From a virus: DNA of 64,000 bases. A model generated the notes under the pieces. That model saw only the letters and a list, made by a program, of their open reading frames with translations, did no database searches and was not told where the DNA came from. The stretch covers positions 64,001 to 128,000 of the IMG/VR virus record IMGVR_UViG_3300028844_006119, one strand, 5' to 3'. The translations under genes were made by a program, and so were the position numbers. Position 1 is the stretch's first letter. Every line of letters begins with the position of its first letter. This document shows positions 26,601-60,062 of the stretch, piece after piece.

Positions 26601-26944
26601 ACAAAGAGCTGAAGAAGTTGGGACTCCCCACCATCCAGCACAAGCCTCTGCTGAAGCCTATGGACAAAGTCCCGCTTTCCGGTAAAGAAGACTGGATGGC
26701 GCGACTAAACTTCCAGAGGCTTAAGGACACCCTTATCGAGGGCGGGGCACAGAACTGGAAGTCAGATATCCAGGGTCACCCCATCCCAGGCCTGGCGCAT
26801 GGTGCGGCGTTTGGACTGCAAGCCCCAAAGACCGCAGCCATAAGCTCCCCTTTCCCCAAGCCCCCCAAACCTGTTAAACTTCCGGCACCTGTGCCTGCCG
26901 CCCCGCAGGGCATCTTCGGGTCCTTCTTTGGAGCAAAGTCATGA
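20606..26944 (+). CDS. DNA-directed RNA polymerase, fused beta/beta-prime single chain
   Basis: Beta motifs: TPE, DNGNRAMM, GYNFED, GDKLSGRHGNKG, PSRMNVGQ, YMLKLDH, GGQRIG. Beta-prime motifs: KRQDLSGRTV, RDPALH, NADFDGD (24806-24826), HGARKG bridge helix, RSPLHC..ICATCYG, GEPVTQMQMRTFHTGG. Confidence 0.97.
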   Translation: MANLAPGDAYRLLEERTKEAIKSHFPVEGRENRLELVDISTDEDASSASGKHHSYNHTSQTDAKLHDRTWGPNIVGTFRLVNMETGKVVDQGKRTLGQLPKITSRYSYIVEGNERQVDSVFRLNPGAYHVEADNGDLLAKWNVAAGSKVGSFKISIERKHPKKLGAMYLIVKSGTQSTRKIPAYGILSALGVSDPAMRKAWGESVFEVNRRISKPNDLLNFHEAVEKRRAGKDKYETPTLSEARKFAKEVFEGAEVNPDTMLATLGKKFTNISGDALLASSAKVVGISKGTAEPDDRQSLSNKRLFGMEDFIHEEISKGSSRFEMQKKIRNNLDRKGKISDILPAASVGYGRLITRKFKAAQLPTQTNPLQFVSNHTKTTILGQAFGGIKGDNVNLDRDKLINPSHLGLLDPLQTPENTSTGVSLHIPIGANKKGQQLYTKVLNVKTGKFENKNAAEMEKAVVAYPDQVKITRTKTGATVRPLHPDVVVYDSDRSTAKRPWKDVQYVLPNAKTLFSVSANMIPFVQNDNGNRAMMAAKHQEQAVSLKDREAPLVQAEFAGGVSFDQMIGKLNSTTASVAGTVSRITKDSVYIKGAAGKAVSHPIYNHHPLNGTKHMMHSTPVVKVGDKVKVGQLIADSNFTKDGTLSLGTNLRVGYLPYKGYNFEDGTVISETAAKKLVSTHLHIEEAEMFANVVVNRKLWRNFAGANKATAEVMSKLDEDGVIKEGAKVVPDDVLITRLVKAEMTRENQDVKRSLKKAIRDYKDAAVVWKHEYGGTVVRVVKTAKKIQVHIRTEQTMEPGDKLSGRHGNKGIITKILPDDMMPKDKSGKPVHVLMSPAGVPSRMNVGQVLETAASKIARKTGKSYKIENFDASVDYSQKIKDELKKHNLSDTEELFDPETGESLGQIFTGEQYMLKLDHQAEKKVSARSGGSGYAYRPTGEAISGSGIGKGGQRIGGLDTYALLAHGAKRNLMEMQTYKSDSEQARDVWIRVMQGQRPPPPKVPTSMEHFKKYLRATGVYAEETGGVYSLSPMTDAQTLGQSKGALVAADKTLVAKGMLTKEEKGGLFDRGKTGGMEGKFWSHIDMKTRMPNPMFETAIQSLLGLKKAEFEKLVSENGAVGKKSGFQIIEERLRAIKVPSELKKAEEELKTAKKADLNKKYKKVRYLRALKELKTSPVDAYTNQHLPVLPPILRPVKIGYDGTQMIDAANQYYAMIGQMTKQVEQGKKEGLPKADIFKREAQLYDLVRALRLNGMTQEGRELPSLMDKMTGSKPKHSFFQQGVLSKRQDLSGRTVVTPEPALKMDQVGIPVDMAMETYKPFVIRELWRRMGIAKSPGEARRMIKKNHPSAKKALERVITQRPVIMKRDPALHMFSTMAFKPVLVPGKSIKIHPLVCGGFNADFDGDTMAMYVPVTEEAAEEALEKMLPSKNLFSPTHGGLMLTPSQDAVLGIYQATKWGKKVPGILTEEQALQQLKNGKLKSDNVITVKGHKKPTTAGRLRINKTLPGSVKNDPELLYDPKFRMAKGAMKGFATRVAQSDPDEFSGMIDGWKELGFTLSYKNGSSFSLNDFHDGKTIRDNVLKKYKKEENVIRKSGISRKKKDQKIIALYQKAGEELKVIGQAHYKAKKDNRMWEWAESGARSNWGQFGQLVMGPMLVQNPSKEFVPVPLTTSFGEGLPISQYWAALHGARKGTLDRAAGTRDPGALTKELINTVIAYSVTDKDCGTSKGTLMSVMAKDIEGRYLAREVPLKSGDKLTRGTLVSSALLTRMKNSGPQKVLVRSPLHCQQATGICATCYGLNERGTLYKKGTNVGIIAGHALGEPVTQMQMRTFHTGGAGTDGLTDYFQQAKDLFKVPEKLRGAATLAEVTGRVDKIETDALGGKKVTIGGKLHVVPHSTPLLPKIRVGADVKKTDALSVGRKNPHDILRISNNIHAVRNHLTTELDSLYVETTGNERRRNIETVIRAMTDVAQVTESSEHENLLNGQMMSLSRIENRNKELKKLGLPTIQHKPLLKPMDKVPLSGKEDWMARLNFQRLKDTLIEGGAQNWKSDIQGHPIPGLAHGAAFGLQAPKTAAISSPFPKPPKPVKLPAPVPAAPQGIFGSFFGAKS

Positions 26945-27363
26945 ACAAGATCGCCGCATACGAAATCGCACTCGAGAGAATCGAACTTGAGAAGCGGGCT
27001 GACTCCCTGGTGGAGGCCTACGGCACCAGTGAGGGCTACATGCCGGGTGCCTACCTTCAGGCGTTTGATCAGATCGAGAAGGAAGCCGGAATCCAGGCTA
27101 TCGCAAATATCGGGAGCCGCCTCTCAACAGCGGCGCGAGGCACCATTAAAGGGATGATGGGGAGCGGCGGGGCAGTAGTCCGAAAGGGCGGGAAGATGCA
27201 GCTTAGCAGGGGAGCCGGACTTGGGGACACGGCTAAGTACTACGGAGCTCGAGGCGTGCAGCGCGCGGGAAGATTCGCCATGCAGAATCCCGGCGCGACT
27301 GCAGCTGTTGGCGGGGTCGGAGGTGTCGGAGCTGCCGGCCTCGGGTACAAGGCTCTGAAGTAG
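26941..27363 (+). CDS. Leader-bearing (MNKIAAYE) protein with cationic glycine-zipper cargo
   Basis: Acidic N-terminal part ending in EKEA, then a basic part ending GGVGGVGAAGLGYK. Confidence 0.7.
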   Translation: MNKIAAYEIALERIELEKRADSLVEAYGTSEGYMPGAYLQAFDQIEKEAGIQAIANIGSRLSTAARGTIKGMMGSGGAVVRKGGKMQLSRGAGLGDTAKYYGARGVQRAGRFAMQNPGATAAVGGVGGVGAAGLGYKALK

Positions 27364-27364
27364 A

Positions 27365-28797: not shown

Positions 28798-28805
28798 GGA
28801 CTAAA

Positions 28806-30146
28806 ATGGCACAACTCCTATTTCTGCCTGATGTCGACCCGAATTCCTTTTTCGAGAAGGAGGCGTCGATCTCGAAGATGCCCGAGGACGAGAAGGATTG
28901 GCCCAGCCACATCCTGAGCATGCTGTACGAGCAGCTGCCCTTCCTCAGCAAGTTCTCGGTCAACATCATGATCCAGAGAATGGAGCCGGAGGCAGGATTT
29001 GCGTTTGGTTACGCCCTGGTTCTGTCTAAGAGCGATCCGCGGGTCTCCACTGAGTCCAAGAACGTTGAGAACGGGATCCGCATTCCTCTCATCGTGGCAG
29101 ATCGGCAGCTCCAGCCGTTCCATACCTTTGAGCTGAAGGGACAGGTCCGGCCCCTTACTCCTGAACGAGTCGCGGCTGCCATGATGAACCCCGCGATGTT
29201 CGACGGCCCGGCCACAAAGCCCGAGACTCAGAAGTCTCTCGTCGATCAGATGTACCCGCCCTACCAGCAGCGCCAGGGCTTCGGCATGACCAGCAGTGGA
29301 AATGCAGGAGGCATGGGTAAGGTCAGTTCTATGCCCCTCTCTGCTATGACGGCCCCACAGCTAAAGCAGCACGCCCGACTGAAGGAAACTGAGAGGGGAG
29401 ATGCCGCTGCGGCATCCATGACCAGCGGTCAGCGGCTGGAGCAGGCAGGAAGAGCTGCCATTGTCCCCACTGCTGCGGGTGCGTTGATCTCGGCAGGCAG
29501 AGGTGCCATGAAAGGCGGCGGGACTTGGAAAAACAGACTTGCCCGTGGGGCGGCTGGGGTCACTACCGGAGCCCTAACGGGTGCGGGAATCTCTGCAGTA
29601 AATACCGGAGTTCAGGAGTCCGCTAGAGTGGCACGGGATGCTCAGAGGGCTAAGTTGGCCTCCCGGATTAAGAAGGGTCTGCCTCCTGCGCTCGCCCGCA
29701 ACGCAGCAAAGGTAAAAGCAGTGCAGAATCCGGAGGCGGGCGCAGAGGTCCCTGCGGGGCTGCGGAAGAAGGGTTCGGTAAGGGAAGCCCACGTAAAGGA
29801 AGCACTGGCCCGCCTGGACTTCAATCCCAGCCGTAGGATTCCTTCAAACATGGTTATGAAGGGCTCTAAGGTCAAGGTGATGCCGGGCGTTACCGCCATG
29901 TCCCTGCGCTTCTTCCCCGTCATGGGAACAAAATTTGTAATAGGCGTGGATACCAAGCTGGCGAAGAAGCTCGGGAAGATGAAGGATCAGAATCAGATCC
30001 GGCAAGCACTAATGGGGCCCATGAAGGCGGAGATCCGGGCTGCGCGCGGTAAGCGCCCCTCCCCCGGAATGTTCATGCTCTTCTCCAAGACGAAGACGGG
30101 ATACGCGTACCAGGTTCCCACCCCCATCCCCGGGATGGCCGCGTGA
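28806..30146 (+). CDS. Virion protein: globular N-terminal domain plus basic Gly-rich modules
   Basis: FEKEAS, GKVSS, KKGS and VKEA boundaries. Confidence 0.65.
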   Translation: MAQLLFLPDVDPNSFFEKEASISKMPEDEKDWPSHILSMLYEQLPFLSKFSVNIMIQRMEPEAGFAFGYALVLSKSDPRVSTESKNVENGIRIPLIVADRQLQPFHTFELKGQVRPLTPERVAAAMMNPAMFDGPATKPETQKSLVDQMYPPYQQRQGFGMTSSGNAGGMGKVSSMPLSAMTAPQLKQHARLKETERGDAAAASMTSGQRLEQAGRAAIVPTAAGALISAGRGAMKGGGTWKNRLARGAAGVTTGALTGAGISAVNTGVQESARVARDAQRAKLASRIKKGLPPALARNAAKVKAVQNPEAGAEVPAGLRKKGSVREAHVKEALARLDFNPSRRIPSNMVMKGSKVKVMPGVTAMSLRFFPVMGTKFVIGVDTKLAKKLGKMKDQNQIRQALMGPMKAEIRAARGKRPSPGMFMLFSKTKTGYAYQVPTPIPGMAA

Positions 30147-30961
30147 TTCCCTTCTACCCCAAGTTTGGAAGCCAGGAGGATGCTCCAGGGTATGGCCCTG
30201 CTGCGTCCGAGGATAAGTGCGAGAACTGCGCGCATTATCGTAACTTGGGGAACCAAGGGCACTGCGAGAAGTTCTCGTTTATGTGCCAGCCTGAGTACGC
30301 CTGTGACGACTTCCGGCCTTCGGGAGTAATCAAGGAGTCCAGCGTGGTTGCGGAGGCTGCGGCCCTCCCCCGGAAGAAGGTCGAGGCGGTACAGGACACT
30401 GCGCGTGCCCTAAAAGAGAGAAACATCTCTCGAGCCCTGAACTCTGCCCAAAAAGACCTGATGCCGGGGAGATACGACAAGGCCATTGAGAACCTAAAGC
30501 ATCTATACCCCAAAGAGGCTGCTTCTCCTTTCATGCAGGGACTCGATCCTCTTGCAGGGGAGGTCGCCCGGGGAGCTATCCGGGATCGGCTGAATCCCGA
30601 CGTCTCTTCGGAGGAAATGACCCGCAGACGGAGACTCGCGACGCTGGGCGGAGTAGTCGGAGGCGGAGTCCTGGTCCCTGGCGCAGTCTCCGCTGTCCTA
30701 GGGGCCGGTGTTGGAGCTATGGGGAATAGAGGGTTGGGGAGAGTTACGGGAGCCGCGCGCCAGGCAGGGCGGGCTCTGCGAGGAACCTTTACCCGGGCAG
30801 GAAGTCCTGCTCTTATTGCCGGGGCAGGGATCGGAGCAATGGGGGCTCGCTCCCAATACGATTTAGGGGCGGGGCTTGCCGAGCTTGCCGCCGAGAAGCA
30901 CGCCTCTACCGACCACAGCTTGCGGTCTTTTCTTAGGAAGAATCATGAACAAGAACGCTAA
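30143..30961 (+). CDS. Cys-rich N-terminal domain plus glycine-zipper module
   Basis: CENCAHY...C...C...CDDF; IKESS, PKEAAS, EKHAS. Confidence 0.65.
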   Translation: MIPFYPKFGSQEDAPGYGPAASEDKCENCAHYRNLGNQGHCEKFSFMCQPEYACDDFRPSGVIKESSVVAEAAALPRKKVEAVQDTARALKERNISRALNSAQKDLMPGRYDKAIENLKHLYPKEAASPFMQGLDPLAGEVARGAIRDRLNPDVSSEEMTRRRRLATLGGVVGGGVLVPGAVSAVLGAGVGAMGNRGLGRVTGAARQAGRALRGTFTRAGSPALIAGAGIGAMGARSQYDLGAGLAELAAEKHASTDHSLRSFLRKNHEQER

Positions 30962-32933
30962 GGTCTTTGGGGCCACCCACGACTCCGACAGAGCGAACAA
31001 TGCGGCCATCCCCTACTCTGGTAGGCGGCGGGAATATGTTCTCTACCTCAATGCGAAGTCTAAGGAATCCCCCACCAAGCTGGTTACGGCGCTCCTAACT
31101 GGGGCAGGTCTCGGAGGACTGGCGGGAGGACTTGCCGGCCTTGGTGGGGGCGCGAAAGGTGCCCTAGTTGGTATCCTTGCTGGGGCCCTTGGTGGCTCCC
31201 TCTTCGGCGCCCTGGCTAAGGCCATCGATGATGGGAACATTCAAGAGGCTAAGCGCATCCTCCGTAAGGGCCACATCGACCAGGGGCTTGGGGAAGCCAT
31301 CATGCGAAACCAGCGAGCCAAGGAACAGGTGGCCCGGAGCAGACACTCCGAGACCCAACGCCGTCTCTCTGGAATCGAGAGAGGTATGAGTCGAGCCAGC
31401 AGCTACCCACACCGTAGTCGTAGGGTCACTGTGAAGGTCGGATCTCTTTGTTCCAAGATCGCAGGTACCTTGAACGAGTCCGACTTCGAGCGCTTCAATG
31501 AGGTGTTTTCCGACGCCAATACTCGACGAATGATTGAGAAGAACGCCTCCGTCATGGAGTGCCTCACCCTCCTGACTGACTCGGAGATTCACAGCACCGA
31601 CAAGATGGCTTCGGCGGCGGCCTCGGCATTCACGATGGGCTACGACGTGGTCCAGGTGAGACCTTCCGGCTACGGCTACACAGTCAAGGTGTCCGCTGCT
31701 CCGCAGGGCGTGGCCCCGCAAGAAACCCAGATGACTCAGCAGCAGGCTCAGCAGGCTCTTCCTCCTGAGATGCTTCAGGCTGCAGACCAGCAGGGCGCTG
31801 GCACGGTCACCAACGTGCAGGCAGACCCCGATCCGCTCGCGGAGAAGATGGCGCCGGCTACCGGGTTCGGCCTCTACAAGGTCACCGATGCTACTTCAGG
31901 CAAGCAGGTCGTTGGCTATGTCATTCCCGGACTGTTTGATCCGGTCTCGGGACAGCCCTCGCAGGTGAGCCTGTTCACCAACGGCTCCGCATACTGCGTG
32001 CAGCCGGTCATCAGCGGCTCCCTGTTGGGCGTGAACTTCAATCTTCCCATCCCGGAGAGCCCGGAAGTTCGCGGTTTGGGCGTGTTCGTCAAGAACAACG
32101 AGAAGGCCATCATCGCGACCATGCCGTACAACATCATCACTAAGGTGTCGGTTGAAGGTAAGGGCTACTTCGCCGCGCAGGACATGCAGGGCAACGACAT
32201 CCGCATCATCCCTTCTGAGGGCATTGCAAAGCCGGTTGCGACCTCTGCCACCGAGATTGTGATTCCCGCAGACTACAAGTTCATGCCTCTCGAGAACCCC
32301 ATCCAGCTTGCTGGCGGGGAAGAGCTGATGAAGTCCGCTCAGGCCAACGCGTTCCATACGATGATGGAGCTCCGGGCCTGGAGTGGAGGATGTCGCCTCG
32401 ATGGTCCCGTCTTCGAGAAGGTGGGATCGGGTGAGCACGACTGGGCCGACGGTGTCTTCTGGATGGCCGCTGCCGGTGTCCCCCAGAACGTAGGCTCTGC
32501 ACTTCTGGAGAAGGCAGCTTCCACAGGAGAGCCTCTCCGTCTGTTTGGTCTTGCGCCGCTTTCTACTCGAGAGGAGTACGTGGTCGAGGCAGAGAAGGAA
32601 GCCATGGCGGAAATGGCAGACATCGAGATTCCCCAGAGAGTCAACCTCCTTAAGGAGATCGCAGCGGTGACCTTCTCCAAGGAAGCATCGGCACTTGTGG
32701 ACACTACGTCTGTGGATGCCGTGCTTGCCCTCAACTTCCTCAACCCCGAGAATGTTGAGACCTTTGTAGAGCACCTGCCGCAGCTTGAGCACGCTTCCGA
32801 GAAGCTTGCCAATATCGTTCTGGCGTCTCAGCTGGGGCTTCAGTCCATCTCTAAGACCGCAGCCGTCCGTGCGATGTTTGCACTTGAAGATGTCATCTCA
32901 GGACTCAAGAGCCTCAAGACGTACTCGGTGTAA
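30945..32933 (+). CDS. Large virion/core protein with N-terminal glycine zipper and many K-x-A sites
   Basis: GAGLGGLAGGLAGLGG; SKIAG, EKNAS, DKMAS, MKSAQ, EKAAS, EKEAM, SKEAS, SKTAA. Confidence 0.7.
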   Translation: MNKNAKVFGATHDSDRANNAAIPYSGRRREYVLYLNAKSKESPTKLVTALLTGAGLGGLAGGLAGLGGGAKGALVGILAGALGGSLFGALAKAIDDGNIQEAKRILRKGHIDQGLGEAIMRNQRAKEQVARSRHSETQRRLSGIERGMSRASSYPHRSRRVTVKVGSLCSKIAGTLNESDFERFNEVFSDANTRRMIEKNASVMECLTLLTDSEIHSTDKMASAAASAFTMGYDVVQVRPSGYGYTVKVSAAPQGVAPQETQMTQQQAQQALPPEMLQAADQQGAGTVTNVQADPDPLAEKMAPATGFGLYKVTDATSGKQVVGYVIPGLFDPVSGQPSQVSLFTNGSAYCVQPVISGSLLGVNFNLPIPESPEVRGLGVFVKNNEKAIIATMPYNIITKVSVEGKGYFAAQDMQGNDIRIIPSEGIAKPVATSATEIVIPADYKFMPLENPIQLAGGEELMKSAQANAFHTMMELRAWSGGCRLDGPVFEKVGSGEHDWADGVFWMAAAGVPQNVGSALLEKAASTGEPLRLFGLAPLSTREEYVVEAEKEAMAEMADIEIPQRVNLLKEIAAVTFSKEASALVDTTSVDAVLALNFLNPENVETFVEHLPQLEHASEKLANIVLASQLGLQSISKTAAVRAMFALEDVISGLKSLKTYSV

Positions 32934-34745: not shown

Positions 34746-34746
34746 G

Positions 34747-39512: not shown

Positions 39513-40394
39513 ATGTTTGGTTTAAGCATCACTAAAGACGATCTGAGAGAGCTGGCCTCCTGTGCCGCTACAGATTTTCTTGAGACTAAGACCCCGCTCA
39601 CCGAAGCGGTAGTCAAGGTCGCAAGTGGCTGCGAGAGGGATCTTACCTCAGAACACGTTCGCCGCATCTGTGAGATGACCTATCACGACGCGTATGAGAG
39701 ACTGCACAAGTCTGCCTCGGCTGCCGACAGGTACATTACTTTCGACCCGCCGGACGCGCCTACAGCAATTGGCATGCTTCGGGCTAAGAAGGTAGAATCC
39801 ATGCACAAGGCGGCCAGCTTTGCAGGAGCCGGAACCATGATCGATAAGACCGCAAGCGCCCCACACCGGACCAAGTTTCAGGCTGCGAATGCCTTTGACG
39901 CTCTGATGAAGACCGCCTCTGTCGAGGAAGAGGGTGTCGACCATCGATACTTGCACCGTATCCGTCAGGATCTCAAGGAGGCAGTGGCCTCGGTAAGCTC
40001 TGAGCACGCTGGCGTTGTGGTTGCGGCCGACCTGGAGATGGGCTCCCTGATCAAGGAGGCGTACTCCTCCTACCGAGATGGGTACTCCGTGGAGGAGATC
40101 CTGCACGCGTGCTTCTCCGGGGCGGACCTGTCCGAGATCCCTAGATCTGCCTCCGTCAAGGTGGCCTCCATCCTCTCTGCTGAGCTGGCAAGAAAGGCCG
40201 TGAAGACCGCAGGTCTCGGAATCAACAAGACTGCCTCTCTCGGGGAAGTCGATCCTACACACCCGCTGCCCTCCCGCTTTACGAAGGCGGCGCAGCTAGA
40301 GACTGAGCGGGCACATCTGGAGCTTACTCTGTCGGACCTCAAGCGGGACCGGGACGGTTTCCGTAAAAAGGTCGAGTCTCTGTATGACCGATAG
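39513..40394 (+). CDS. Head core/scaffold-like protein with about 10 K-x-A sites
   Basis: VKVAS, HKSAS, HKAAS, DKTAS, MKTAS, IKEAY, VKVAS, VKTAG, NKTAS, TKAAQ. Confidence 0.7.
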   Translation: MFGLSITKDDLRELASCAATDFLETKTPLTEAVVKVASGCERDLTSEHVRRICEMTYHDAYERLHKSASAADRYITFDPPDAPTAIGMLRAKKVESMHKAASFAGAGTMIDKTASAPHRTKFQAANAFDALMKTASVEEEGVDHRYLHRIRQDLKEAVASVSSEHAGVVVAADLEMGSLIKEAYSSYRDGYSVEEILHACFSGADLSEIPRSASVKVASILSAELARKAVKTAGLGINKTASLGEVDPTHPLPSRFTKAAQLETERAHLELTLSDLKRDRDGFRKKVESLYDR

Positions 40395-40677
40395 CCTGCT
40401 AACTCCCCAAGTCATGACGGCGTTCTCCGACGAGATCGAGAAGCTCGCCTTCTCCGTAATTGGCCGGGCGGCTAAGGGAGCTGCGGACATGGGGTTTAAG
40501 GGCGTCGGTTCCGTGGCTAAGGCAGCGGTAAACAACCCCAAAGCGGCTCTCATGGGAACCGCAGCACTCGGCGCAACCGGCCTCGGGGGAGCCCACGTAC
40601 TTAAGAAGTCCAGGCAGGGCTTTGAGGCCCAGAGTATGGGCTCTCTTCCTGGCCGGCATGGTACTTTAACCACATAG
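40384..40677 (+). CDS. Leader-bearing (AFSDEIEKLA) cationic glycine-zipper peptide
   Basis: Leader followed by FSVIGRAAKG...TAALGATGLGGAHVLKK. Confidence 0.7.
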   Translation: MTDSLLTPQVMTAFSDEIEKLAFSVIGRAAKGAADMGFKGVGSVAKAAVNNPKAALMGTAALGATGLGGAHVLKKSRQGFEAQSMGSLPGRHGTLTT

Positions 40678-40687
40678 GAGTCTAATC

Positions 40688-41209
40688 ATGGAAATTCCCG
40701 CAGAAGCATACGAGCTTTACGCTCGAGGCGAGATCACTGACCGGGAGATGCACGAGCTTGAGAAGTTCGCAGAGGCTCTCGAGAAGACCGCCTTCGATTA
40801 TGGGAAGGCGGGGCTGATGATGGGCGGAATGGCGCTGGCTGCTCCGGCGCTGGCGTATGCCGCAAACCAGGTCCCTAAGACCTTGCAGGGTATGGCGAAC
40901 TCCATGCGCTTCGAGTCCGGCCTAAACAAGGCTCTCGAGATCAACCCGCAGCTCGGTAGTGCTAAGGACCCGAACTTGCGCATGGCGTACAAGACGCTCC
41001 AGACGACCAACCCGGACTACGCCAAGGATCCTCTGATCGCCGGTACCATTCTGGACATGGTCATGTCGAACCGCATGGACCCTGATGATCCCGGCAGCGC
41101 ACCTCGTTTCGACCCGACACTTCTCAATGAGATTCAGAAGAGCGCTCCCAGATCGCCTGACATGACCCAAACCATGGGAAGCGCGGCAATGACCGCCGCC
41201 AAGGGATAG
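40688..41209 (+). CDS. Putative internal virion protein with acidic propeptide ending in EKTA
   Basis: ELEKFAEALEKTA followed by hydrophobic GLMMGGMALAAPALAYA. Confidence 0.65.
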   Translation: MEIPAEAYELYARGEITDREMHELEKFAEALEKTAFDYGKAGLMMGGMALAAPALAYAANQVPKTLQGMANSMRFESGLNKALEINPQLGSAKDPNLRMAYKTLQTTNPDYAKDPLIAGTILDMVMSNRMDPDDPGSAPRFDPTLLNEIQKSAPRSPDMTQTMGSAAMTAAKG

Positions 41210-41218: not shown

Positions 41219-43192
41219 TTGGACAAGTACGCGCTATACCCCGGAAAGGCTGCTGACGGCCGGCCCAGAGTTCACCTGGTTGAGCCGGGTACTGGGTATG
41301 GTATGGCCAGTACTGACGGAGTCACCAAGACCGCGTCGGGAGAGCACCTTCCGGAAGTCATGGAGCTTATTGAGTCGATCGAGGCGCAGCCCGGAAGGCT
41401 GTACTTGGTCAACTCAGCTCTGGGTGCTGGGGAGAACGTTGGGTTCAATCTTCGAGGTGACTGGTTCACTGAGAAGGGCCTGAATCACACTCCTCCCGGA
41501 TTCGAGCAGATCCCGGTGTGGGATATCGAAGCGCGGAGAAAAGCCGCAAACATCACAGAGGCTGTGCCTCGGTGGGGGTCTTTGGCGTGGGGCTACCCTA
41601 CGTTCTACAACGCGCATAGATTCCGGCACCACGTCAACAAGGACCCAAACAAAGCCTACGGATTCATTCTGGGGGCTTTTTGGGATGACCGTATGAAGCG
41701 GGTCATCCTGGTGTCTGAGCTGATTAAGACCATGTGCGCCAAGATGGGGGCTCTTGATCTGTACAACCGGATCCAGGGTGGGGACTTTCCAGACTCCAGC
41801 ATGGGCAGCAAGGTCCCGTACGACCGATGCGCTATTTGTAACCACCATGCCCGCACACCAATGCAGTATTGTGAGCATGTCCGTAAGGGAGCTTCTCCTC
41901 CCTATGGAATGAAGTCCATGCTCCCGGACGGGCGTATCTGCGGTGTTTACAACGACTACCCGAGATTCTTCGACGATTCATTTGTGTTTGTCGGGGCCGA
42001 GCGATCTGCGAAGGTGATGTCGGATGTCACGAATCAGGTCTCGGGGAGAAACGCGTACTCCCAGAAGATCTACCCGTTCTCGCGCCCCATCCAGAAGATT
42101 GCTTCTGCAGCCGGGGTAGCGGATGTAACTCCTATCTCTGATGCTCCGTCTCCGCAGACGCAGAAGCCGAACATCCCGGACTTTGTTTTAGAGGAAAAAC
42201 TTACTCGGGCTGTCCAGCTGATTCCCGTAAGCACCTCTGCTGAGCGAGAGACGCTTAGATTCTTCATGCAAGAGCGCCTAGCGGAGGAAAGAGTCCGTGC
42301 GGGGACAATGTCCTCCACTGAGATGCAGATGTGGAAGGACCTCTCGCGGAACGTATTACTGAGGCAGTACGGGGTCTCCCCAGAGCAGATGGTCCACCTA
42401 AAGGTACTGTTCAACACCCGAGCAAATCAGGTACTTGGGATTACTAAGGTTGCGGAGATGCCCAAGTGGGCAGAGATTCTGAAGAGAATCCCCGCCCCCT
42501 CTCCGGAGCACATGAGCATCGTGCGTAGAGAGGAGAAGTGCCTCCCCGAGATTCCTAGAGAAATCCTGGACGAAATCGCAGATGCTCCTGGGCCAAATCT
42601 CCGTGCTGCAGCACGGATGGGCATCGTGGCCCGTCCCAATGAGTTCCAGTACATCATGCTGCGGCAAAGAGACCCGGACTTAGCGAGTAGACTCCACACG
42701 AATAGAGTGGTATTTCGCCCTACTTCCCTTCGTAGGGAGACATCAGCGTTCAATACGGGCTATGTCCCTCGCGACACTATGCACTCCATCATCCATAAGT
42801 TGGCACCTCTTATAGCCTCACGCTCCTTTGCGCCTTCGGCTATTAGAGCGCGGATCATTAAGATCACGCCCATGCCTAAGATCGCAGAGTTCTCAGAGAC
42901 CGAGAACTTGGATGAGGTCTCAGAGCTATACAATCAGTATCGCCTGGGGCTTATGCTATCTCCTACAGACCTCACGGCAGTGACCGTGCCCTCTGTTTTC
43001 TCCGATAGAATCGATGACGATGTGAAAATTGCCGGTGATTCTGTTAGTCTTTCTGCCCTAATGACGAGCCTTGCCTATTGGCCCGGTTTACAGTTAGGAT
43101 TAAACTCGGCTGAGGGGTCCTCCTCCGAAGACGCCACCCACTCTCAACCCCATATTGGAGAAATCCATCATGTCACTCCTTACGGAGCTTGA
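41219..43192 (+). CDS. Prohead (capsid maturation) protease
   Basis: NLRGDWF, FRHH, DSSMG followed by CAIC..YCEH, FFDDSFVFVGAE; lies upstream of the scaffold and capsid genes; carries its own KTAS/KIAS sites. Confidence 0.7.
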   Translation: MDKYALYPGKAADGRPRVHLVEPGTGYGMASTDGVTKTASGEHLPEVMELIESIEAQPGRLYLVNSALGAGENVGFNLRGDWFTEKGLNHTPPGFEQIPVWDIEARRKAANITEAVPRWGSLAWGYPTFYNAHRFRHHVNKDPNKAYGFILGAFWDDRMKRVILVSELIKTMCAKMGALDLYNRIQGGDFPDSSMGSKVPYDRCAICNHHARTPMQYCEHVRKGASPPYGMKSMLPDGRICGVYNDYPRFFDDSFVFVGAERSAKVMSDVTNQVSGRNAYSQKIYPFSRPIQKIASAAGVADVTPISDAPSPQTQKPNIPDFVLEEKLTRAVQLIPVSTSAERETLRFFMQERLAEERVRAGTMSSTEMQMWKDLSRNVLLRQYGVSPEQMVHLKVLFNTRANQVLGITKVAEMPKWAEILKRIPAPSPEHMSIVRREEKCLPEIPREILDEIADAPGPNLRAAARMGIVARPNEFQYIMLRQRDPDLASRLHTNRVVFRPTSLRRETSAFNTGYVPRDTMHSIIHKLAPLIASRSFAPSAIRARIIKITPMPKIAEFSETENLDEVSELYNQYRLGLMLSPTDLTAVTVPSVFSDRIDDDVKIAGDSVSLSALMTSLAYWPGLQLGLNSAEGSSSEDATHSQPHIGEIHHVTPYGA

Positions 43193-44123
43193 ATCACGGG
43201 GCGTCACAGCTGAGGATCTTGAGAAAGCGGCATCTGTCCGTTTATTTGAGAAGGCTGCTGCCGCCGAAGACGTGGATCTCGGCTCACTTGATGAAAATCA
43301 GGTAGAAGACCTCTACGTCACATTCCTTTCCAACCAGTCCAATGATGACTACACAAAAGAGGCTTCCGCCATGAACGACGAAATCGTTGACCTTTTCGAA
43401 AAGACCGCTGCAGCCGAGGGCATTGACCTCGACGACATGGCGGACCACGAGCTTGCTGAGCTCTACAACCACTACGTTGAGAACGTTCTGCCCGAGCAGG
43501 TCGAAGAGTACGAGAAGGGTGCTTCGTACGAGGTCGACGAGGCCACCGAGAAGCTCGCTGAGGCCGAGATTCTCGGTCGCCACATGGCGCGTGCCTACAT
43601 GGATGAGTTCGACAAGGAGGCTGCGAGCGCAGCAGCGGCCGGTGCCAGACTGGACGCTGCTGCGGCCGAGGCCGGACGATGGGGCCAGTCGGGCAAGGTC
43701 GAGGCGCAGAACGCCGCGAACCGTGCCAAGGAATCGATTGGACGAGGCTACGAGTCTGCCAAGGCGAAGGGCAAGGCTGGCTATGAAGCTGGTGTCCGTG
43801 GTGCTAAGGCCACTGGTGCCGCAGTTGCTTCCGGTGCTCGGTCCTACGGCAATGCTATGACTGGTAAGCAGTTGCGAGAGGCTGTCTCCACCATGCGTAA
43901 GCAGAAGGGTGGATATCGATCTTCCGCAATGGGCCGCGGTAAGGCCCTTCGTGGCGGTGCCAAGACGCTAGCCGCATGGGGCGCAACCGGTGCAGCTGGC
44001 TACGGCGCCAAGAAGGGCTACGACAGGATGACCAAGAAGTCCTCGATTGACGAGATCATTGAGGACCGCGCCAACGAGCTTCTCGGAGAGTTCCTCTTCG
44101 AGAGCGGTGTCGAGCTGGACTGA
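43170..44123 (+). CDS. Acidic scaffold-like protein with internal repeat and an embedded cationic cassette
   Basis: LFEKAAAAEDVDL / LFEKTAAAEGIDL repeat; basic Gly/Ala segment between KEA and KKS. Confidence 0.7.
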   Translation: MSLLTELESRGVTAEDLEKAASVRLFEKAAAAEDVDLGSLDENQVEDLYVTFLSNQSNDDYTKEASAMNDEIVDLFEKTAAAEGIDLDDMADHELAELYNHYVENVLPEQVEEYEKGASYEVDEATEKLAEAEILGRHMARAYMDEFDKEAASAAAAGARLDAAAAEAGRWGQSGKVEAQNAANRAKESIGRGYESAKAKGKAGYEAGVRGAKATGAAVASGARSYGNAMTGKQLREAVSTMRKQKGGYRSSAMGRGKALRGGAKTLAAWGATGAAGYGAKKGYDRMTKKSSIDEIIEDRANELLGEFLFESGVELD

Positions 44124-46531: not shown

Positions 46532-47668
46532 ATGGATTATTCCGCTGAAATGGTGAATTCGGGCTTCATTGAGCGCCTCGAGACTGAGGGTTCCACGAAG
46601 ACCGCCGCCGCCTCTCTCAACTACATCAAGGATCGCCTGCGCGAGTCCAGCTTTGCCGACATGATCGTTCCGAACGAGCGTGTTGTGCGTGGCGACTTGC
46701 AGCGCAGCACCCAGCACGACACCCTCGTGAAGATCGTCGACATCGAGCCGGGTTCCCGCGCGATGGCCGTCAACTTCCGTGGTCAGCCTACCGCTGAGTA
46801 CGTGTCTGGTAAGCGCTACGCAATCGGCTTCTTCACCATCTCGAGCCTCAAGTTCGAAATCGTGGAGCAGGAGCTGATGGCATACGAGATGCCCGTCACC
46901 CGCATCATCGAGGAGAACAGCCTCAAGGACATGGTCGAGGTCAAGGATCGCGAGTTCCTGAACCACGTCGAGTCCTGCATCGATGCAATGCAGAGCGAGG
47001 GTGGTATCACCACCTTCAACACCTCGACTTGGACAGCTGGTTCCCAGTTCTCGAAGATCAAGGGCTCTCTGGCTCTGCAGCAGACCACCGACAACTTCAA
47101 CGTCCAGGCAATCCAGCGGACTGACATTGTGGAGCTCAAGAAGCTTCTCAAGCGTCAGGTGCTTGATAGCTCCGGTAACGTGGTTCGTCAGGGTCGTCTT
47201 CGTCCCGCGCTGATGCTCATGACTGAGTCCGACGCTGACGACTTCGATCAGTGGACTCACGAGGACTACGGTGATCGTCTCCAGAGCGAAACCGCTCTCG
47301 ACGGCTACACCTACAACAAGGTCCTCGGTCTGCGCATCGTCCGTACCATCAAGAACGACATCCTGCGTGAGGGCAACGTTTACGTGTTCACCGCACCGGA
47401 GTTCTTCGGCCGGAACTACACGCTGAACGATGTCAAGTTCTACATCGATAAGATTGCGAACCGCATCTTCTGGCAGGCATGGATGGACGTGGGCATGGGC
47501 TTCGGCAACATCGCCTCGGTCGTCAAGCTTGAGCTCTACTCCGGTAGTGTCAGTGGCACGCCGGATTCCGGCTTTGCTGCAGCGATGCCGACTGACGAAG
47601 AGAACCTGGGTGGCCAGAACAACAAGGCCGCTGATGGTCTGACCTACCCGAGCCTCAACATCTTCTAG
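46532..47668 (+). CDS. Major capsid protein (HK97-fold expected)
   Basis: 378 aa; follows the protease/scaffold genes; AGGAG RBS; strongly biased codons; followed by a terminator. Confidence 0.75.
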   Translation: MDYSAEMVNSGFIERLETEGSTKTAAASLNYIKDRLRESSFADMIVPNERVVRGDLQRSTQHDTLVKIVDIEPGSRAMAVNFRGQPTAEYVSGKRYAIGFFTISSLKFEIVEQELMAYEMPVTRIIEENSLKDMVEVKDREFLNHVESCIDAMQSEGGITTFNTSTWTAGSQFSKIKGSLALQQTTDNFNVQAIQRTDIVELKKLLKRQVLDSSGNVVRQGRLRPALMLMTESDADDFDQWTHEDYGDRLQSETALDGYTYNKVLGLRIVRTIKNDILREGNVYVFTAPEFFGRNYTLNDVKFYIDKIANRIFWQAWMDVGMGFGNIASVVKLELYSGSVSGTPDSGFAAAMPTDEENLGGQNNKAADGLTYPSLNIF

Positions 47669-49309: not shown

Positions 49310-50158
49310 ATGTCTGACTGGTTCAAGAATCCCGCCTCTGAAATCCCCGATGAGATGTGGAGAGCTCCTGCCCCCATGCAGCGCCAGGCGGACGCCGTGG
49401 TGATGTGGGCTGAGCTCACGGGCAAGCACGCTTCCTTCGACGGCGTCAAGGCGTTTGGGCAAACCCTTCGGCTAAACCCGCGAAGTGATGATCTAGAGAA
49501 TGCCTTTGCTCACTATGAGAAAAAGACGGGCAAACGTAGGAACCAGATGTCCCAGAGAGACGTCTACAACTCTTTGCGGGCTACGGGCATGGGAAAGTCC
49601 GCCGCATTCAAGCCCCTCTGGGAGCAACAGGGCGTCAAATCGTGGGCACAGGAAGATGCTTTGATGGCGGCCATCAAAGCCGAGGCTACTCCTGCAAGAA
49701 AGGCAAAGCTTATTCAGAGGCTCCGTAAGTTAGAGAGCTCCAACCTAGAAGGGGATTACGGCATTAAAAGTGCCTCCCTTGCTGAGATGGTGGGGCACAA
49801 AGAAGCCGCCTGGAAGCCTGGAGTCAAAAAGGCCATTCACATGGCTGGGGACAACATCGAGCTCACGGGTGCTGCAATCGGAGCGCCACTTGGCGGCCTA
49901 AAGGCATACACGGACTATCGTGAGGGGAAGGGTGGGATTAGCAAGGCCGAGGCAACCCTTAAGGGGGAGATCACCAAGGCGCAGTCTCAGAAGGCGGACA
50001 AGAAGCGGATCGCTAAGCTGAGGCAGAAGCTCCAGACCGCCAAGTCCCGCAGAGAGAACATCGGCGCAACGACCGCAAAGGGGATCGGCCTCGGGGCGAC
50101 GACTGGAGCCCTCGGCATGCACGCAATTAAGCGGATGCGCGGGGCAGGGCCGAAGTGA
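49310..50158 (+). CDS. Multi-module putative internal virion protein
   Basis: GKHAS, GKSAA, IKSAS and HKEAA separate short modules; the last is basic with glycine zippers. Confidence 0.65.
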   Translation: MSDWFKNPASEIPDEMWRAPAPMQRQADAVVMWAELTGKHASFDGVKAFGQTLRLNPRSDDLENAFAHYEKKTGKRRNQMSQRDVYNSLRATGMGKSAAFKPLWEQQGVKSWAQEDALMAAIKAEATPARKAKLIQRLRKLESSNLEGDYGIKSASLAEMVGHKEAAWKPGVKKAIHMAGDNIELTGAAIGAPLGGLKAYTDYREGKGGISKAEATLKGEITKAQSQKADKKRIAKLRQKLQTAKSRRENIGATTAKGIGLGATTGALGMHAIKRMRGAGPK

Positions 50159-51033
50159 TCAAGTTTTGCAATGAAAGAGTGCTCTCTTTTGAGCTGGATT
50201 ACCTGGACGTCATGTGGGAAATCGAGCCCACAACTGAGGACGTTCAGGAGTACCAGTTCTTTGTAGAGCGCTCTGAGGCGGAGGCAGGGCCTTGGCTTCA
50301 GATTGCAGGACCCCTCGTCGATGTCTACCGATTCCGGGACAACGCTACTCCCCAGATTACGACCAATGCCCGGACTCTCTTCTACCGAGTAAAGGCACTT
50401 CATTCCCCTACCGGAAGGATTGTCTACTCTCCTCTTTTCGACCAAGAGGGGCCTATTTCTTTACACGCTAAAGAAATGGTGAGACTGGAGAGAGTGCTGT
50501 TTGAGGAATTCGTCGCAATCCACTGTTGGATTTTCCCTCGCCGCACGTTTGGGCAGAGATGCCCGAACTGCTATGACGACGTCCTGGACAAAGTCATTGA
50601 TGACTCCTGCCCTACCTGCTGGAGTACCGGATTCAGTGGCGGTTACCACCACCCCATCTCTTTTTGGGCCCAGATTGATGCCCCAGAGCAAACGGAGCAG
50701 GTGTCTCTTGAGGACCACCGAAGGGTGCTGTATTACCAGATTCGGTGTGGCCCAAGCCCCGCGCTGAAGCCTATGGACCTAATCATCGATCACCAAAACA
50801 GAAGGTACCGGGTGGTGACGGTCTCCGGCACTGCCCGACTGGGGGTAACTGTTCGGCAGGAGGCACGTCTGGTCCAGATCCAGAGGGGCTCCATCGAGGA
50901 CAAGATCCCGCTGAAGGTAGATACTGCTACAGTAAAGAGATTCCCAGAAAAGGTCTTTACCAACCCCCACTCGTTAGAGGCCGCAGAGCCTGACATCTCT
51001 AGCATCTTCGGTGCCTACGGATACACCCCATGA
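50155..51033 (+). CDS. Probable head closure/neck protein with FN3-like N-terminus and Zn motif
   Basis: VMWE...YQFFVERSE...YRFRD...FYRVKA; CPNC...CPTCWSTGFSGGY. Confidence 0.5.
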   Translation: MIKFCNERVLSFELDYLDVMWEIEPTTEDVQEYQFFVERSEAEAGPWLQIAGPLVDVYRFRDNATPQITTNARTLFYRVKALHSPTGRIVYSPLFDQEGPISLHAKEMVRLERVLFEEFVAIHCWIFPRRTFGQRCPNCYDDVLDKVIDDSCPTCWSTGFSGGYHHPISFWAQIDAPEQTEQVSLEDHRRVLYYQIRCGPSPALKPMDLIIDHQNRRYRVVTVSGTARLGVTVRQEARLVQIQRGSIEDKIPLKVDTATVKRFPEKVFTNPHSLEAAEPDISSIFGAYGYTP

Positions 51034-51386
51034 CGAATCGCAAGACGGACAACGGAAGGCCCTTCACTCGAGGGATGCTTCTTCCGGCTGCAGCAACCGG
51101 CGCTGGGATGTTTGCCGGAGGCATGATGGGTGCCGCCGGAGCACGGGCCATTCTCCGCTCCCCCGGTATGGCAGAAAAGCTCCGCAGAATGAGCCCGGCA
51201 CAAAGAAAGGTCTTCGGCGAGCGAGCCCTTCTGGTGACTAATACCGCAGGCAACATGGCTGGGGCTGGGGCCGGGTACCTCGCCCACTCGCTCTTTCAGG
51301 ACGAGATGGACAAGAGAAAGAAGAGCAGGGAGAAGACTGCCTCCGCGTTTCTCTACTGCTTGGAGTACCTAAACAGCTATGAGTAG
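51030..51386 (+). CDS. Cationic glycine-zipper protein with C-terminal EKTAS
   Basis: GAGMFAGGMMGAAG; AGAGAGY; REKTASAF. Confidence 0.65.
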   Translation: MTNRKTDNGRPFTRGMLLPAAATGAGMFAGGMMGAAGARAILRSPGMAEKLRRMSPAQRKVFGERALLVTNTAGNMAGAGAGYLAHSLFQDEMDKRKKSREKTASAFLYCLEYLNSYE

Positions 51387-58334: not shown

Positions 58335-58344
58335 AGGAAGAGAC

Positions 58345-58587
58345 ATGAATAAGATCGCAATGTACGAAGAGCTGCTCGAAAATCACCCTCTCTGGAGCAA
58401 AGAAGGAGGCATTAGTTCGGGGCTGAAGGCCCTGAAGGCCTCCGGTCTGAAGGCCTCCGGTCTGAAGGCGGGGACGGCTAAGAAGATGCTTGCAGCACGA
58501 CCGATGTCGCAGGGGGGGTCGCAGAGATGGATGATGAAGAGCACACCATCGCTGAGGCAGAATGTCGGGTCTCTTTTCAAGAGGTAG
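58345..58587 (+). CDS. Leader-bearing (MNKIAMYE) cationic peptide with LKASG repeats
   Basis: Leader ending in SKEG, followed by GLKALKASGLKASGLKAG. Confidence 0.65.
   Translation: MNKIAMYEELLENHPLWSKEGGISSGLKALKASGLKASGLKAGTAKKMLAARPMSQGGSQRWMMKSTPSLRQNVGSLFKR
58424..58470 (+). repeat. 15-bp coding tandem repeat CTGAAGGCCTCCGGT
   Basis: Two full copies plus partial copies. Confidence 0.75.
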
Positions 58588-58594
58588 GTAAGCG

Positions 58595-58882
58595 GTGGAT
58601 CTTGAAGTCCTACATTTCTTCTCTGATGAGGTGGAGAAGACTGCGTCTGGCCCGTGGAATCAGAACGCTGGCGCGTTCGCAAGTGTCGCCGGGGAGCTGG
58701 ACGATGGCGGCGGGTTCACTGTCTCTGATCTTCGGAAGTACCTGCGCTACCCACAGTCGCGATCCTCAGTTCAGCGACCTACTAAGCCTACGGTGATGTG
58801 GACCTCCTCGGATGCAGAGGACTGGCTCATCTTCAGCCCAAACAAGCACCGGGCGTTTGTTCGCTGGGCTAGAGGCAAATGA
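58595..58882 (+). CDS. Leader-bearing (MDLEVLHFFSDEVEKTA) small protein
   Basis: GTG start; leader duplicated in the next gene. Confidence 0.7.
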   Translation: MDLEVLHFFSDEVEKTASGPWNQNAGAFASVAGELDDGGGFTVSDLRKYLRYPQSRSSVQRPTKPTVMWTSSDAEDWLIFSPNKHRAFVRWARGK

Positions 58883-59127
58883 TGGATCTCGAAGTCTTAC
58901 ATTTCTTTTCTGATGAGGTGGAGAAGCTCGCAGCGAAGAGTCGGCACAACTACTACATGCGGAATCGTAATCAGATTCTGCAGAAGCAGCGTCAGTACCG
59001 AGCCAAGAACAAGGCCGGTATTGCACGCAGGCAGAAGATGTACCGGCGGAAGGTAAAGATGGGCGCGCATAGACAGCGTAAGCGCATCTCTACGGGCCAC
59101 TCCTACACCTACGGCGGGTACAGATAG
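58879..59127 (+). CDS. Leader-bearing (MDLEVLHFFSDEVEKLA) protamine-like peptide
   Basis: Cargo is very rich in Arg/Lys/Tyr and has no acidic residue. Confidence 0.7.
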   Translation: MMDLEVLHFFSDEVEKLAAKSRHNYYMRNRNQILQKQRQYRAKNKAGIARRQKMYRRKVKMGAHRQRKRISTGHSYTYGGYR

Positions 59128-60062
59128 TGGATGTCCCTGACCTATTCGACCAGAAGAGGAAGAAGGTCTCTGGGCTAAAGATGCCCAGGCAGTTTACTCC
59201 GCGGTTACCCGGCGCATCCACTAAGGGGCAGGCTCCCATAAACCCGTTCTCAGGAAATAAGATGAAGGTCGCATCCCTGTCTTCTTTCCGAGAAGCTCAG
59301 CTCATAAAGACTGCCTCTGCGGAAGACGCTCATCTCTACTTTGAGATGTGCAAGCTTGCGGATACTGGGGATGAGCTTAAGATTCGCATGTTCCTAGCGC
59401 AGCATCCTGAGATGGAGAAAGACGCTGGGATCATCGGCCACGGCTTCAGGCTGCTGAGTAAGGCCCTGGGAGGGGCAGGTAAGACTTTCAACAGTAGCCG
59501 CTTGACTGCCGCCGCAGGCAAAGCTGAATACGCAGCAGCAAAAAGGTTCAGCGGGGCGGCGGTAAATCCTAGAAACCTAGGGCAGGCCGCTAAGGAAACC
59601 CAGTACGCCTCTCTAGCGGGAGCTTCTGGTAAGCGGGGAGGGGAGCTCACCGCTGCCGCAAAAAACATCCGAGAAGCCAAAGCCGTCAAATCTCAGGTAA
59701 ATGCTGGGCAGTTTGCTGCACCTGCTGCGGCTCCTGCTCCCTCTAACGTCGTCCCTGGCGCCCCTTCCGCGTTTAAGGGACAGCCGGACAAATATGTAAA
59801 GGCATATGCGGACGTCGGGGATGAGACAGCTAAGAGGACCCTGGCCGGCAGAGTAAGTGAGAAGCAGCTCGAAGCTGTCGCGAAGACCGCTCCTACTCCT
59901 AAGACGGAGCTGCTCTCGAACAGTACTCTCGGCAAGGCCATCGTGGGCACGGCCGCCGTAGGCGGGGTCGGGGCTGTGGGCTACGGAGGCTACAAGGGCG
60001 TTCAGCGCGGAAAGGCGCAGAACCTGCAGCAGCAGGCTCGCGGGTTCAACTACGGGATGTAG
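59127..60062 (+). CDS. Putative internal virion protein with K-x-A sites and C-terminal glycine zipper
   Basis: MKVAS, IKTAS, CKLAD, EKDAG; AAVGGVGAVGYGGYK. Confidence 0.7.
   Translation: MDVPDLFDQKRKKVSGLKMPRQFTPRLPGASTKGQAPINPFSGNKMKVASLSSFREAQLIKTASAEDAHLYFEMCKLADTGDELKIRMFLAQHPEMEKDAGIIGHGFRLLSKALGGAGKTFNSSRLTAAAGKAEYAAAKRFSGAAVNPRNLGQAAKETQYASLAGASGKRGGELTAAAKNIREAKAVKSQVNAGQFAAPAAAPAPSNVVPGAPSAFKGQPDKYVKAYADVGDETAKRTLAGRVSEKQLEAVAKTAPTPKTELLSNSTLGKAIVGTAAVGGVGAVGYGGYKGVQRGKAQNLQQQARGFNYGM

Follow-up and report, generated by a model that had tools for sequence, protein, structure and literature searches.

What is the role of the glycine-rich segments with basic flanks that recur in the head-module proteins of an uncultured phage, IMG/VR record IMGVR_UViG_3300028844_006119? 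The window analyzed here is a stretch of 64,000 nucleotides, bases 64001-128000 of one 142,186-bp contig, and an earlier note had described ten of its genes as a family of cationic, amphipathic glycine-zipper peptides that would be freed from acidic pro-regions and act on membranes during ejection. Our results indicate that the set consists of at least 11 mixed head-module proteins (97-662 aa) of an Arash-like phage rather than of free peptides. Their uncharged stretches, bracketed by Lys/Arg and frequently closing with Tyr, Trp or His on the C-terminal side, are predicted glycine-zipper helices or two-helix hairpins. The explanation that we tentatively favor is that these are cargo or core proteins of the capsid, matured by a protease and ejected with the DNA and an RNA polymerase that the phage encodes and probably packages, after which the zippers would insert or oligomerize in the host membrane. 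Genes of the window are referred to by the position of their first base and lie on the plus strand unless stated otherwise; comparisons with relatives draw on 36 related IMG/VR loci of 4-21 kb each.

A zipper-type segment was defined as a run of at least 15 residues without D, E, K or R in which Gly makes up at least 25% and Gly plus Ala at least 45%. Genome-wide, 21 such segments of 15-47 aa are present in 14 proteins, compared with 3.9 ± 1.9 (maximum 9) when residues are shuffled within each protein. Carriers make up 10 of 42 head-module proteins, compared with 2 of 71 proteins outside the plus-strand virion blocks. Similar stretches are found in two upstream virion genes, one of which encodes a Gly-rich protein of 1117 aa that is taken as tape-measure-like from its size and composition alone and for which no PHROGs family match was found. 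All ten genes of the earlier note are real open reading frames (ORFs) at the starts it gave, and its core observation, taken as Gly/Ala-rich segments with basic flanks in head-module proteins, holds for nine of them (26941, 28806, 30143, 30945, 40384, 43170, 49310, 51030, and 59127), to which the unlisted gene 14713 is to be added; 16724 fails the segment definition and passes only on Gly richness. The possibility that these are wrong-frame artefacts of GC-rich DNA was ruled out, as the ORFs are tightly packed, syntenic, and conserved as proteins in relatives.

Charged residues are strictly excluded from the interior of the segments, and Lys/Arg is ordered at their edges: the residue preceding a segment is K/R in 84% of cases and the residue following it in 74%, and the flanks (10+10 aa) carry a net charge of +2.7 to +3.1 against a background of +0.27. 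Tyr/Trp accounts for 11-12% of residues at positions -3/-2 from the C-terminal edge, compared with 2.5% in the background, and the combination of an aromatic C-terminal edge with K/R at both edges resembles an interfacial anchor. In 145 distinct segments from relatives, the Gly autocorrelation is strong at lag 4 (z 10.9) and lag 8 (z 10.1), and hydrophobic residues are also spaced at period 4/8. Judged from this spacing, the zipper character is real, although the evidence for it lies at the level of the clade. Adjacent segment pairs are present in 30945, 14713, 30143, and 51030, and relatives contain 29 hairpin-like pairs; C-terminal placement is seen for 29 segments, compared with 18 expected. 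In the 51030 family, zipper 1 holds 8 of the 15 invariant columns (P19, A22, G24, A25, G26, G30, G31, and G34) at an overall identity of 28-32%.

The earlier note had treated its ten genes as a single family, and this stands for a subset. A cassette hidden Markov model built from 43170 orthologues, with the window's own copy excluded, gave scores of 32.3 bits for 43170, 18.0 for 59127, 8.5 for 40384, and 5.2 for 26941, the last only just over the best score of 5.0 in the control of 20 locally shuffled proteomes. The 59127 cassette matches that of 43170 at z 6.5, and nine residues, GYGGYKGVQ, are identical in 59127 and the orthologue of 43170 in one relative (locus L008). In all four genes the cassette takes the form [K/R]-Gly/Ala-rich-(G-Y/L-G)-K-K, mostly near the C terminus. 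A single homologous family of all ten genes was ruled out, as only these four share the cassette above shuffled controls; the remaining genes have other zipper types, often paired (30945, 30143, 14713, and 51030). The proposed end motif G-[AV]-x-G-[YL]-G-x-x-K is found exactly in 43170 and 59127 and nearly so in 26941 and 40384, which falls short of the "often" that had been claimed.

Zipper modules also come and go. Orthologues of 43170, 44438, 45171, 48803, and 49310 gain, lose or duplicate them, and the number of segments ranges from 2 to 20 per relative locus, with at least one in 35 of the 36 loci. The 104-aa protein of 45171-45485 has four K-x-A-[SA] sites (EKIAA, EKRAS, DKVAS, and EKTAS); its orthologues carry zipper pairs in some relatives, and there are none in this genome. 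Among 115 homologues of the 30945 C-terminal domain, an N-terminal extension carries zippers in 26 of 37 long forms and in only 4 of the 71 that do not exceed 530 aa. The short forms start at the leader SLCxxIAGT...RRMIEKNA/S (here and below, a slash marks the putative cut), and the zipper hairpin of 30945 has therefore been fused upstream of this leader rather than being released downstream of it, which speaks against the pro-region proposal for this gene. Distant cultured relatives have only one or two zipper head proteins, so the module seems to have expanded in this clade: Vibrio phage D69 encodes a 151-aa protein (locus L044, 38234-38689) with a net charge of +27 and a C-terminal zipper, and gp224 of Salmonella phage Arash (locus L042, 38887-39507) is a zipper-bearing head protein. 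Zipper-bearing gp213 and gp224 of Arash have been detected in virions by mass spectrometry (PMC10585845).

Processing of these proteins is suggested by a recurrent motif. K-x-A-[SAG] occurs 67 times in the head module, compared with 24.5 expected (z 9.6), and is also enriched in the head genes of Arash and D69, which makes it a reasonable candidate for the head-protease site. Herpesvirus assemblin-type proteases likewise cut after Ala and before Ser. The enzyme presumed to make these cuts is the 657-aa product of 41219 (41219..43192), whose N-terminal ~240 aa resemble head-maturation proteases (phrog_18299, E 9.6e-5, a weak match) and whose N-terminal part is the counterpart of Arash gp222 (3.7e-32); a PDB sequence search with this protein found nothing. 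In-silico cutting at K-x-A-[SAG] yields zipper-bearing fragments with net charges of +4 to +23 and acidic neighboring fragments, and 85-94% of zipper fragments are net positive, so that the claim of basic segments after the predicted cuts is borne out. These putative fragments, however, are 64-303 aa long (median about 150-170 aa) and are not the peptides that had been envisaged, and close bracketing of the zippers by K-x-A sites to release short peptides was ruled out, as the sites lie no nearer to zippers than to random positions. Nor are the segments amphipathic: their hydrophobic moment at 100 degrees is 0.03-0.12, and the charges flank the helix with none along one face. With the cationic amphipathic antimicrobial peptides that had been suggested, the fragments share the net positive charge but neither the short length of a few tens of residues nor the high hydrophobic moment.

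It had also been proposed that acidic pro-regions neutralize the basic parts until maturation. The leaders, however, contribute only -1 to -6, and the whole-protein net charge remains +4 to +30 in 8 of 11 proteins, so that acidic leaders cannot neutralize most of them. The leader FSDEI-x-K-x-A is found in 16724, 40384, and 44126. The last of these (44126-44413) encodes a 95-aa protein in which the leader RFFSDEICKLA/G precedes a zipper-free part that is basic (+7) and rich in Pro, Ser, and Lys, so that this leader is not reserved for proteins with zippers. A further small protein, of 80 aa and net +10 (58345-58587), has the N terminus MNKIA-x-YE in common with 26941 and a tandem SGLKA repeat in three copies, and it is likely a paralogue of the 26941 leader bearing a different basic cargo.

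The data show a sequence pattern that is enriched and confined to virion genes, is conserved and swapped as a module across relatives, and comes with the charge pattern described above; from this we infer that the proteins are packaged, cleaved, ejected, and inserted into a membrane as follows. They would be loaded into the prohead as cargo or core components and trimmed by the head protease at K-x-A/[SAG], and their basic flanks would keep them on the packaged DNA. Upon infection they would leave through the tail together with the DNA and polymerase, and the zipper helices would insert into, or oligomerize in, the host cytoplasmic membrane, where they may stabilize or extend a translocation channel or anchor the ejected complex. 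The Gly period of 4, the exclusion of charge, the basic edges, the aromatic C-terminal edge, and the hairpin-like pairs match what is expected of membrane-embedded glycine zippers. Hydrophobicity was expressed as dG19 (Hessa scale, kcal/mol), for which the zipper of Escherichia coli SlyB (4.4) and an ordinary E. coli transmembrane helix (YdhI, -1.4) served as references, and values of 1.1-5.7 in 30945, 30143, 40384, 51030, and 59127 place these segments at about the hydrophobicity of the SlyB zipper. Taken over all segments the picture is mixed, as roughly half come up to the SlyB zipper and the others are more polar. A bolder version, which we consider rather unlikely, is that large phages with a packaged RNA polymerase of their own carry a rapidly evolving arsenal of protease-matured, cationic glycine-zipper proteins that insert in the host inner membrane after ejection, lining a channel for the DNA and the 235-kDa polymerase or remodeling membrane into an early protective compartment for the incoming genome, akin to the early-infection vesicle of phiKZ-like phages.

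Several of our results weigh against insertion in the host membrane after ejection. For the 21 segments of this genome, the Gly lag-4 autocorrelation is not significant (z 1.1), and per-gene GxxxG counts exceed those of shuffles only in 30945, 51030, and 14713, so that the claim of G-x-x-x-G repeats is upheld by the 145 segments of relatives and in this genome by three genes. The segments of six of the eleven proteins have dG19 values above 6 and are too polar for a stable monomeric transmembrane helix, and the zippers have pLDDT values below 50 in AF2 (AlphaFold2) models. K-x-A sites are at no shorter distance from zippers than from random positions. The best-conserved cassette sits in the scaffold-like, acidic 43170, which points to an assembly role, and the strong positive charge of the proteins fits DNA binding. 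Presence in the virion is itself weak evidence, because the Arash list comprises 116 proteins including metabolic enzymes. The spacing data also bear on the notion that the segments are low-complexity linkers, Gly/Ala spacers that arise easily at 57% GC and have no helix-packing or membrane function. The shuffle-level counts in most genes of this genome and the low AF2 confidence would both be expected under this notion, as would the outcome of the family searches, in which the ten named proteins had no Pfam match at the curated threshold and no glycine-zipper family even at E values up to 1. Spacers without function nevertheless sit poorly with the strong period-4 spacing in relatives, with the invariant Gly/Ala/Pro positions in zipper 1 of the 51030 family at 28-32% overall identity, with the restriction of segments to virion genes despite a uniform GC content across the window, and with the exclusion of charge and the ordered K/R edges, and we regard them as very unlikely.

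The polarity of the segments and the location of the cassette would be accommodated if the proteins act purely within the capsid, with the cassettes serving as helix-packing tags for co-assembly of scaffold and core or for docking to the inner capsid, in the manner of encapsulin cargo-loading peptides, and the flanks condensing DNA. One cassette type is common to the scaffold-like 43170 and the cargo-like 59127, 40384, and 26941, up to the nine residues that are identical in 59127 and an orthologue of 43170, and this fits a co-assembly or docking tag. The AF2 model of 43170 is all-helical and elongated, as scaffolds are (pTM 0.28, with the zipper helix at low confidence), the polarity of half of the segments exceeds what a transmembrane helix would tolerate, and net charges reach +21 to +30. 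On the other hand, positively charged flanks combined with aromatic residues at the edge and hairpin-like pairing are a typical signature of zippers that are embedded in membranes; modules that come and go among close relatives would be unusual for a tag critical to assembly; and 51030 is without a leader or cut site, yet the zipper is its most conserved part. An exclusively intracapsid role is therefore possible, although we hold it to be somewhat unlikely, and it should be stressed that roles in the capsid and in the membrane after ejection are not mutually exclusive.

The hydrophobicity data also bear on whether the zippers serve as membrane anchors in the producing cell, tethering head-assembly or lysis-related proteins to the inner membrane with no role in ejection. 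There is precedent for this in T4, whose proheads assemble on the host membrane (PMC5694885), and the small 51030 product, with its two helices and basic loops, has the appearance of a membrane protein. In addition, 34723 (34723-35178), a 151-aa acidic protein (net -8) with a Cys-rich C-terminal part encoded just 5' of the terminase region, has an N-terminal Gly-zipper helix (IVIAILVGVGAGIGTGVGI) that is truly hydrophobic, its dG19 of 0.4 being the second lowest of the proteome. It resembles a genuine membrane protein, perhaps one of the lysis or spanin type, and is placed outside the cationic set. Most carriers, however, have leaders and sites of head-protease type and are interleaved with portal, RNA polymerase, scaffold, and capsid genes; their cut sites are not positioned to release an anchored protein; and most segments are too weakly hydrophobic for insertion of the Sec/YidC type. 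Anchoring in the producing cell thus appears improbable.

In function, the closest known systems are the capsid-targeted internal proteins of T4 and, in giant phages, the proteins that are ejected or form the inner body; the closest in sequence style are the SlyB/YMGG-type zippers and the glycine-zipper toxins; by sequence comparison, membership in these families fails on homology. The T4 internal proteins (IPI-III and Alt) and core proteins carry a capsid-targeting sequence that is cut by the prohead protease gp21 (PMC5694885). The proteins described here resemble them in being encoded in the head module, in having short N-terminal leaders that end in a recurrent protease-type motif, in a basic cargo that is presumed to exit with the DNA, and in being accompanied by a scaffold-like protein with many putative cut sites. 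They differ in the motif, which is K-x-A/[SAG] here and L/I-x-E in T4; the description of the T4 proteins makes no mention of a glycine-zipper module, and PHROG and Pfam searches of the ten proteins revealed no sequence similarity to T4 internal proteins or Alt. In SPN3US, gp47 is a protease-processed ejection protein with a predicted transmembrane domain in its mature part, for which contact with the host membrane has been suggested (PMC5694885), and in phiKZ the inner-body proteins undergo proteolysis, are injected, and associate with a lipid compartment (10.1101/2024.03.24.586471). The packaging of an RNA polymerase together with protease-processed, ejected head proteins, as in SPN3US (gp47, gp53, and gp54) and phiKZ (gp93-97, PF12699), is here predicted from the genes. 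Unlike in those phages, the propeptides and cleavage motif are of another kind, PF12699 is not among the Pfam matches of the ten proteins at E values up to 1, and the single transmembrane domain of gp47 is replaced by a repeated, swappable Gly-zipper module in many proteins.

SlyB is described as residing in the outer membrane and carrying a glycine zipper 2TM domain (10.64898/2026.06.08.730324). Proteins of the SlyB, OsmB, and YMGG type (PF05433, PF13488, PF13441, and PF13436) share with the phage segments the GxxxGxxxG spacing, uncharged Gly/Ala-rich helices, frequent pairing, and a similar hydrophobicity (4.4 for the SlyB zipper, 1.1-5.7 kcal/mol here). The phage proteins differ in being encoded by head-module genes, in their much more basic flanks, and in having no lipoprotein signal, as inspection of the ten N termini revealed no hydrophobic signal with a lipobox Cys and several have acidic leaders instead. 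Matches to these Pfam families are confined to relatives and are sub-threshold: Gly-zipper_YMGG/Omp/OmpA/2TM families were matched in 4 of 10 relatives, and the best scores remained below the cut-offs (24.6 vs 28.9 bits, 22.4 vs 25, 20.5 vs 27, and 14.3 vs 24.2). Delivered glycine-zipper toxins, which include Tse4 and Ssp6 of type VI secretion systems, CdzC/D, and Gly-rich microcins, offer a second parallel. TelE, a toxin of the type VII secretion system, is delivered in soluble form and has a C-terminal glycine zipper that inserts into and destabilizes the target membrane (PMC10765036). The C-terminal placement of the zipper in TelE and EsxX is also common in the head proteins studied here; unlike for these toxins, delivery would be by the capsid and tail of a phage, and it would serve infection rather than killing. 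The ejection proteins of podoviruses (T7 gp14/15/16 and P22 gp7/16/20) are internal to the capsid, exit first, and build a channel across the envelope. Gene 28806 has a marginal match to a T7 gp16-type PHROG (E 0.0034), and the proteins of this phage are far more numerous and variable; Arash, its closest cultured relative, is a contractile-tailed myovirus.

Literature searches on glycine zippers in phage virion or ejection proteins returned no description of such a module. Little is understood of how large phages bring their DNA, along with proteins as bulky as a virion RNA polymerase, through the cytoplasmic membrane, or of the roles of their many internal head proteins; a swappable zipper module that recurs on head cargo processed by a protease would offer a concrete and testable approach to both. 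Besides this genome, 35 of the 36 related metagenomic loci contain the module, and two cultured phages, Arash and D69, have it in few copies; the mature parts are therefore open to synthesis, mutation, and assay. If membrane-active, these proteins would be a source of new pore-forming or depolarizing proteins; if they are assembly tags, they would provide a cargo-loading code for packaging foreign proteins into capsids. Should the bolder version outlined above prove true, the glycine zipper would be a general, portable module of phage head cargo that is soluble in the capsid and membrane-active in the host.

The individual genes illustrate how varied the set is. Among the four cassette genes, 26941 (26941..27363) overlaps the stop codon of the RNA polymerase gene and encodes 140 aa, with an acidic N-terminal part up to IEKEA/G and a C-terminal part of 91 aa and +12 that includes the C-terminal cassette (aa 112-136, nt 27274-27348) ending in GLGYKALK. 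The 97-aa product of 40384 (40384..40677) has the leader ...FSDEIEKLA/F and a basic part in which the cassette (aa 54-73, nt 40543-40602; dG19 4.7) is followed by KK; no other member is as good a candidate for the release of a short product, of a predicted ~64-76 aa. The scaffold-like 43170 (43170..44123; 317 aa, net -20) has an acidic helical N-terminal half with six K-x-A-[SA] sites and a +11 C-terminal part with the cassette (aa 266-280, nt 43965-44009: ...GAAGYGAKKGYDRMTKKSS), then a conserved acidic tail. In 59127 (59127..60062; 311 aa, net +21), three K-x-A sites lie in the first 100 aa and the cassette is near the C terminus (aa 271-289, nt 59937-59993: ...VGAVGYGGYKGVQRGK).

Paired zippers are found in proteins of quite different size. 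The 407-aa acidic head-module protein 14713 (14713..15936) has two (aa 156-170 and 187-201; nt 15178-15222 and 15271-15315) in a +4 fragment between K-V-A (138-140) and K-N-A (206-208). In the 272-aa protein 30143 (30143..30961), the zippers (aa 165-195 and 219-235; nt 30635-30727 and 30797-30847) lie in a +6 fragment between K-E-A and K-H-A and have a dG19 of 4.2 kcal/mol, near the 4.4 of SlyB; its Cys-rich N terminus contains a C-x2-C...C...C motif (30143-30350). The largest member, 30945 (30945..32933; 662 aa), has an N-terminal extension of +17 with a zipper hairpin (aa 46-70 and 72-91, nt 31080-31217; dG19 1.1 and 2.3), which precedes the conserved leader (aa 167-201) and then a conserved acidic, beta-rich domain of ~460 aa. 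This C-terminal domain (31443-32933) has more than 100 metagenome homologues, mostly stand-alone proteins of ~500 aa, and it is modeled confidently by AF2 (pLDDT 80-90) as beta-rich with small barrels, the zippers again being below 50. A Foldseek search of this model against the PDB returned nothing at E values up to 0.001, and a wide VIA-align comparison matched only a terminal helical hairpin (Z up to 7.8). The conserved two-helix protein 51030 (51030..51386; 118 aa, net +9) has zipper 1 at aa 15-38 (nt 51072-51143) and helix 2 at aa 66-90 (nt 51225-51299); an acidic leader is lacking, and a K-T-A-S tail is present only in this genome.

In 28806 (28806..30146; 446 aa, net +30), the leader ...SFFEKEA/S is followed by a zipper-type segment at aa 248-270 (nt 29547-29615), and it is aa 156-337 that weakly match phrog_342, "internal virion protein with endolysin domain" (E 0.0034); PHROGs searches of the ten proteins gave nothing beyond this marginal match. 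The 282-aa protein 49310 (49310..50158; net +21) has four K-x-A-[SA] sites and a C-terminal fragment of +16 with a zipper (aa 258-273, nt 50081-50128) 9 aa from its end. A weak member is 16724 (16724..17689; 321 aa, net +22, 15% Gly), with the leader FFFSDEIQKCA/G, a longest uncharged run of 17 aa, and 9 GxxxG observed compared with 6.8 expected. A possible extra member is 40688 (40688..41209), of 173 aa, in which ...LEKTA/F is followed by the uncharged stretch AGLMMGGMALAAPALAYAANQVP (dG19 4.1) and whose counterpart in Vibrio phage D69 has a clear zipper.

The genome carries genes for a family-A DNA polymerase, a large terminase, a major capsid protein, and a fused beta-beta' RNA polymerase, and its GC content of ~57% is uniform across the window. 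Salmonella phage Arash and Vibrio phages D69, D181, and D148, with ~30% identity at the protein level, are its closest relatives in culture, and a megablast search with 8 kb of sequence against a phage collection gave no match. Searches of the protein Atlas returned only unnamed viral clusters, with scores of at most 0.85. Arash is a myovirus with a contractile tail, and the RNA polymerase subunits are among the most abundant of the 116 proteins of its virion proteome, which includes metabolic enzymes (PMC10585845). In the window, the portal protein (17686..19788) matches Arash gp204 (E 3e-93), the major capsid protein (46532..47668) is assigned from a family match and the Arash comparison, and the 2112-aa fused RNA polymerase (20606..26944), a probable virion cargo, lies inside the virion block. 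Directly 3' of the polymerase gene and 26941 is a gene for a 399-aa protein (27365-28564) with a sub-threshold match to a Phage_base_V/type VI secretion system spike OB domain (E 3e-4, 21.4 bits vs a cut-off of 23.8). One would not expect a spike-like domain within a block of head genes, and a PDB sequence search found no relative of known structure. The protein of 15936-16727 has a rubredoxin-like C-x2-C...C-x2-C motif and a weak PknG_rubred match (E 0.014), and its Cys motifs and those in the N terminus of 30143 may be zinc knuckles of packaged proteins. The 134-aa ORF 5' of the polymerase gene (20193-20597) is extremely rich in Ser, Pro, and Arg (net +20) and looks more like a chance frame than a gene. 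Directly after the virion block, on the opposite (minus) strand, 60365-62215 encodes a 616-aa protein with a VWA CoxE-like domain (E 6.6e-7).

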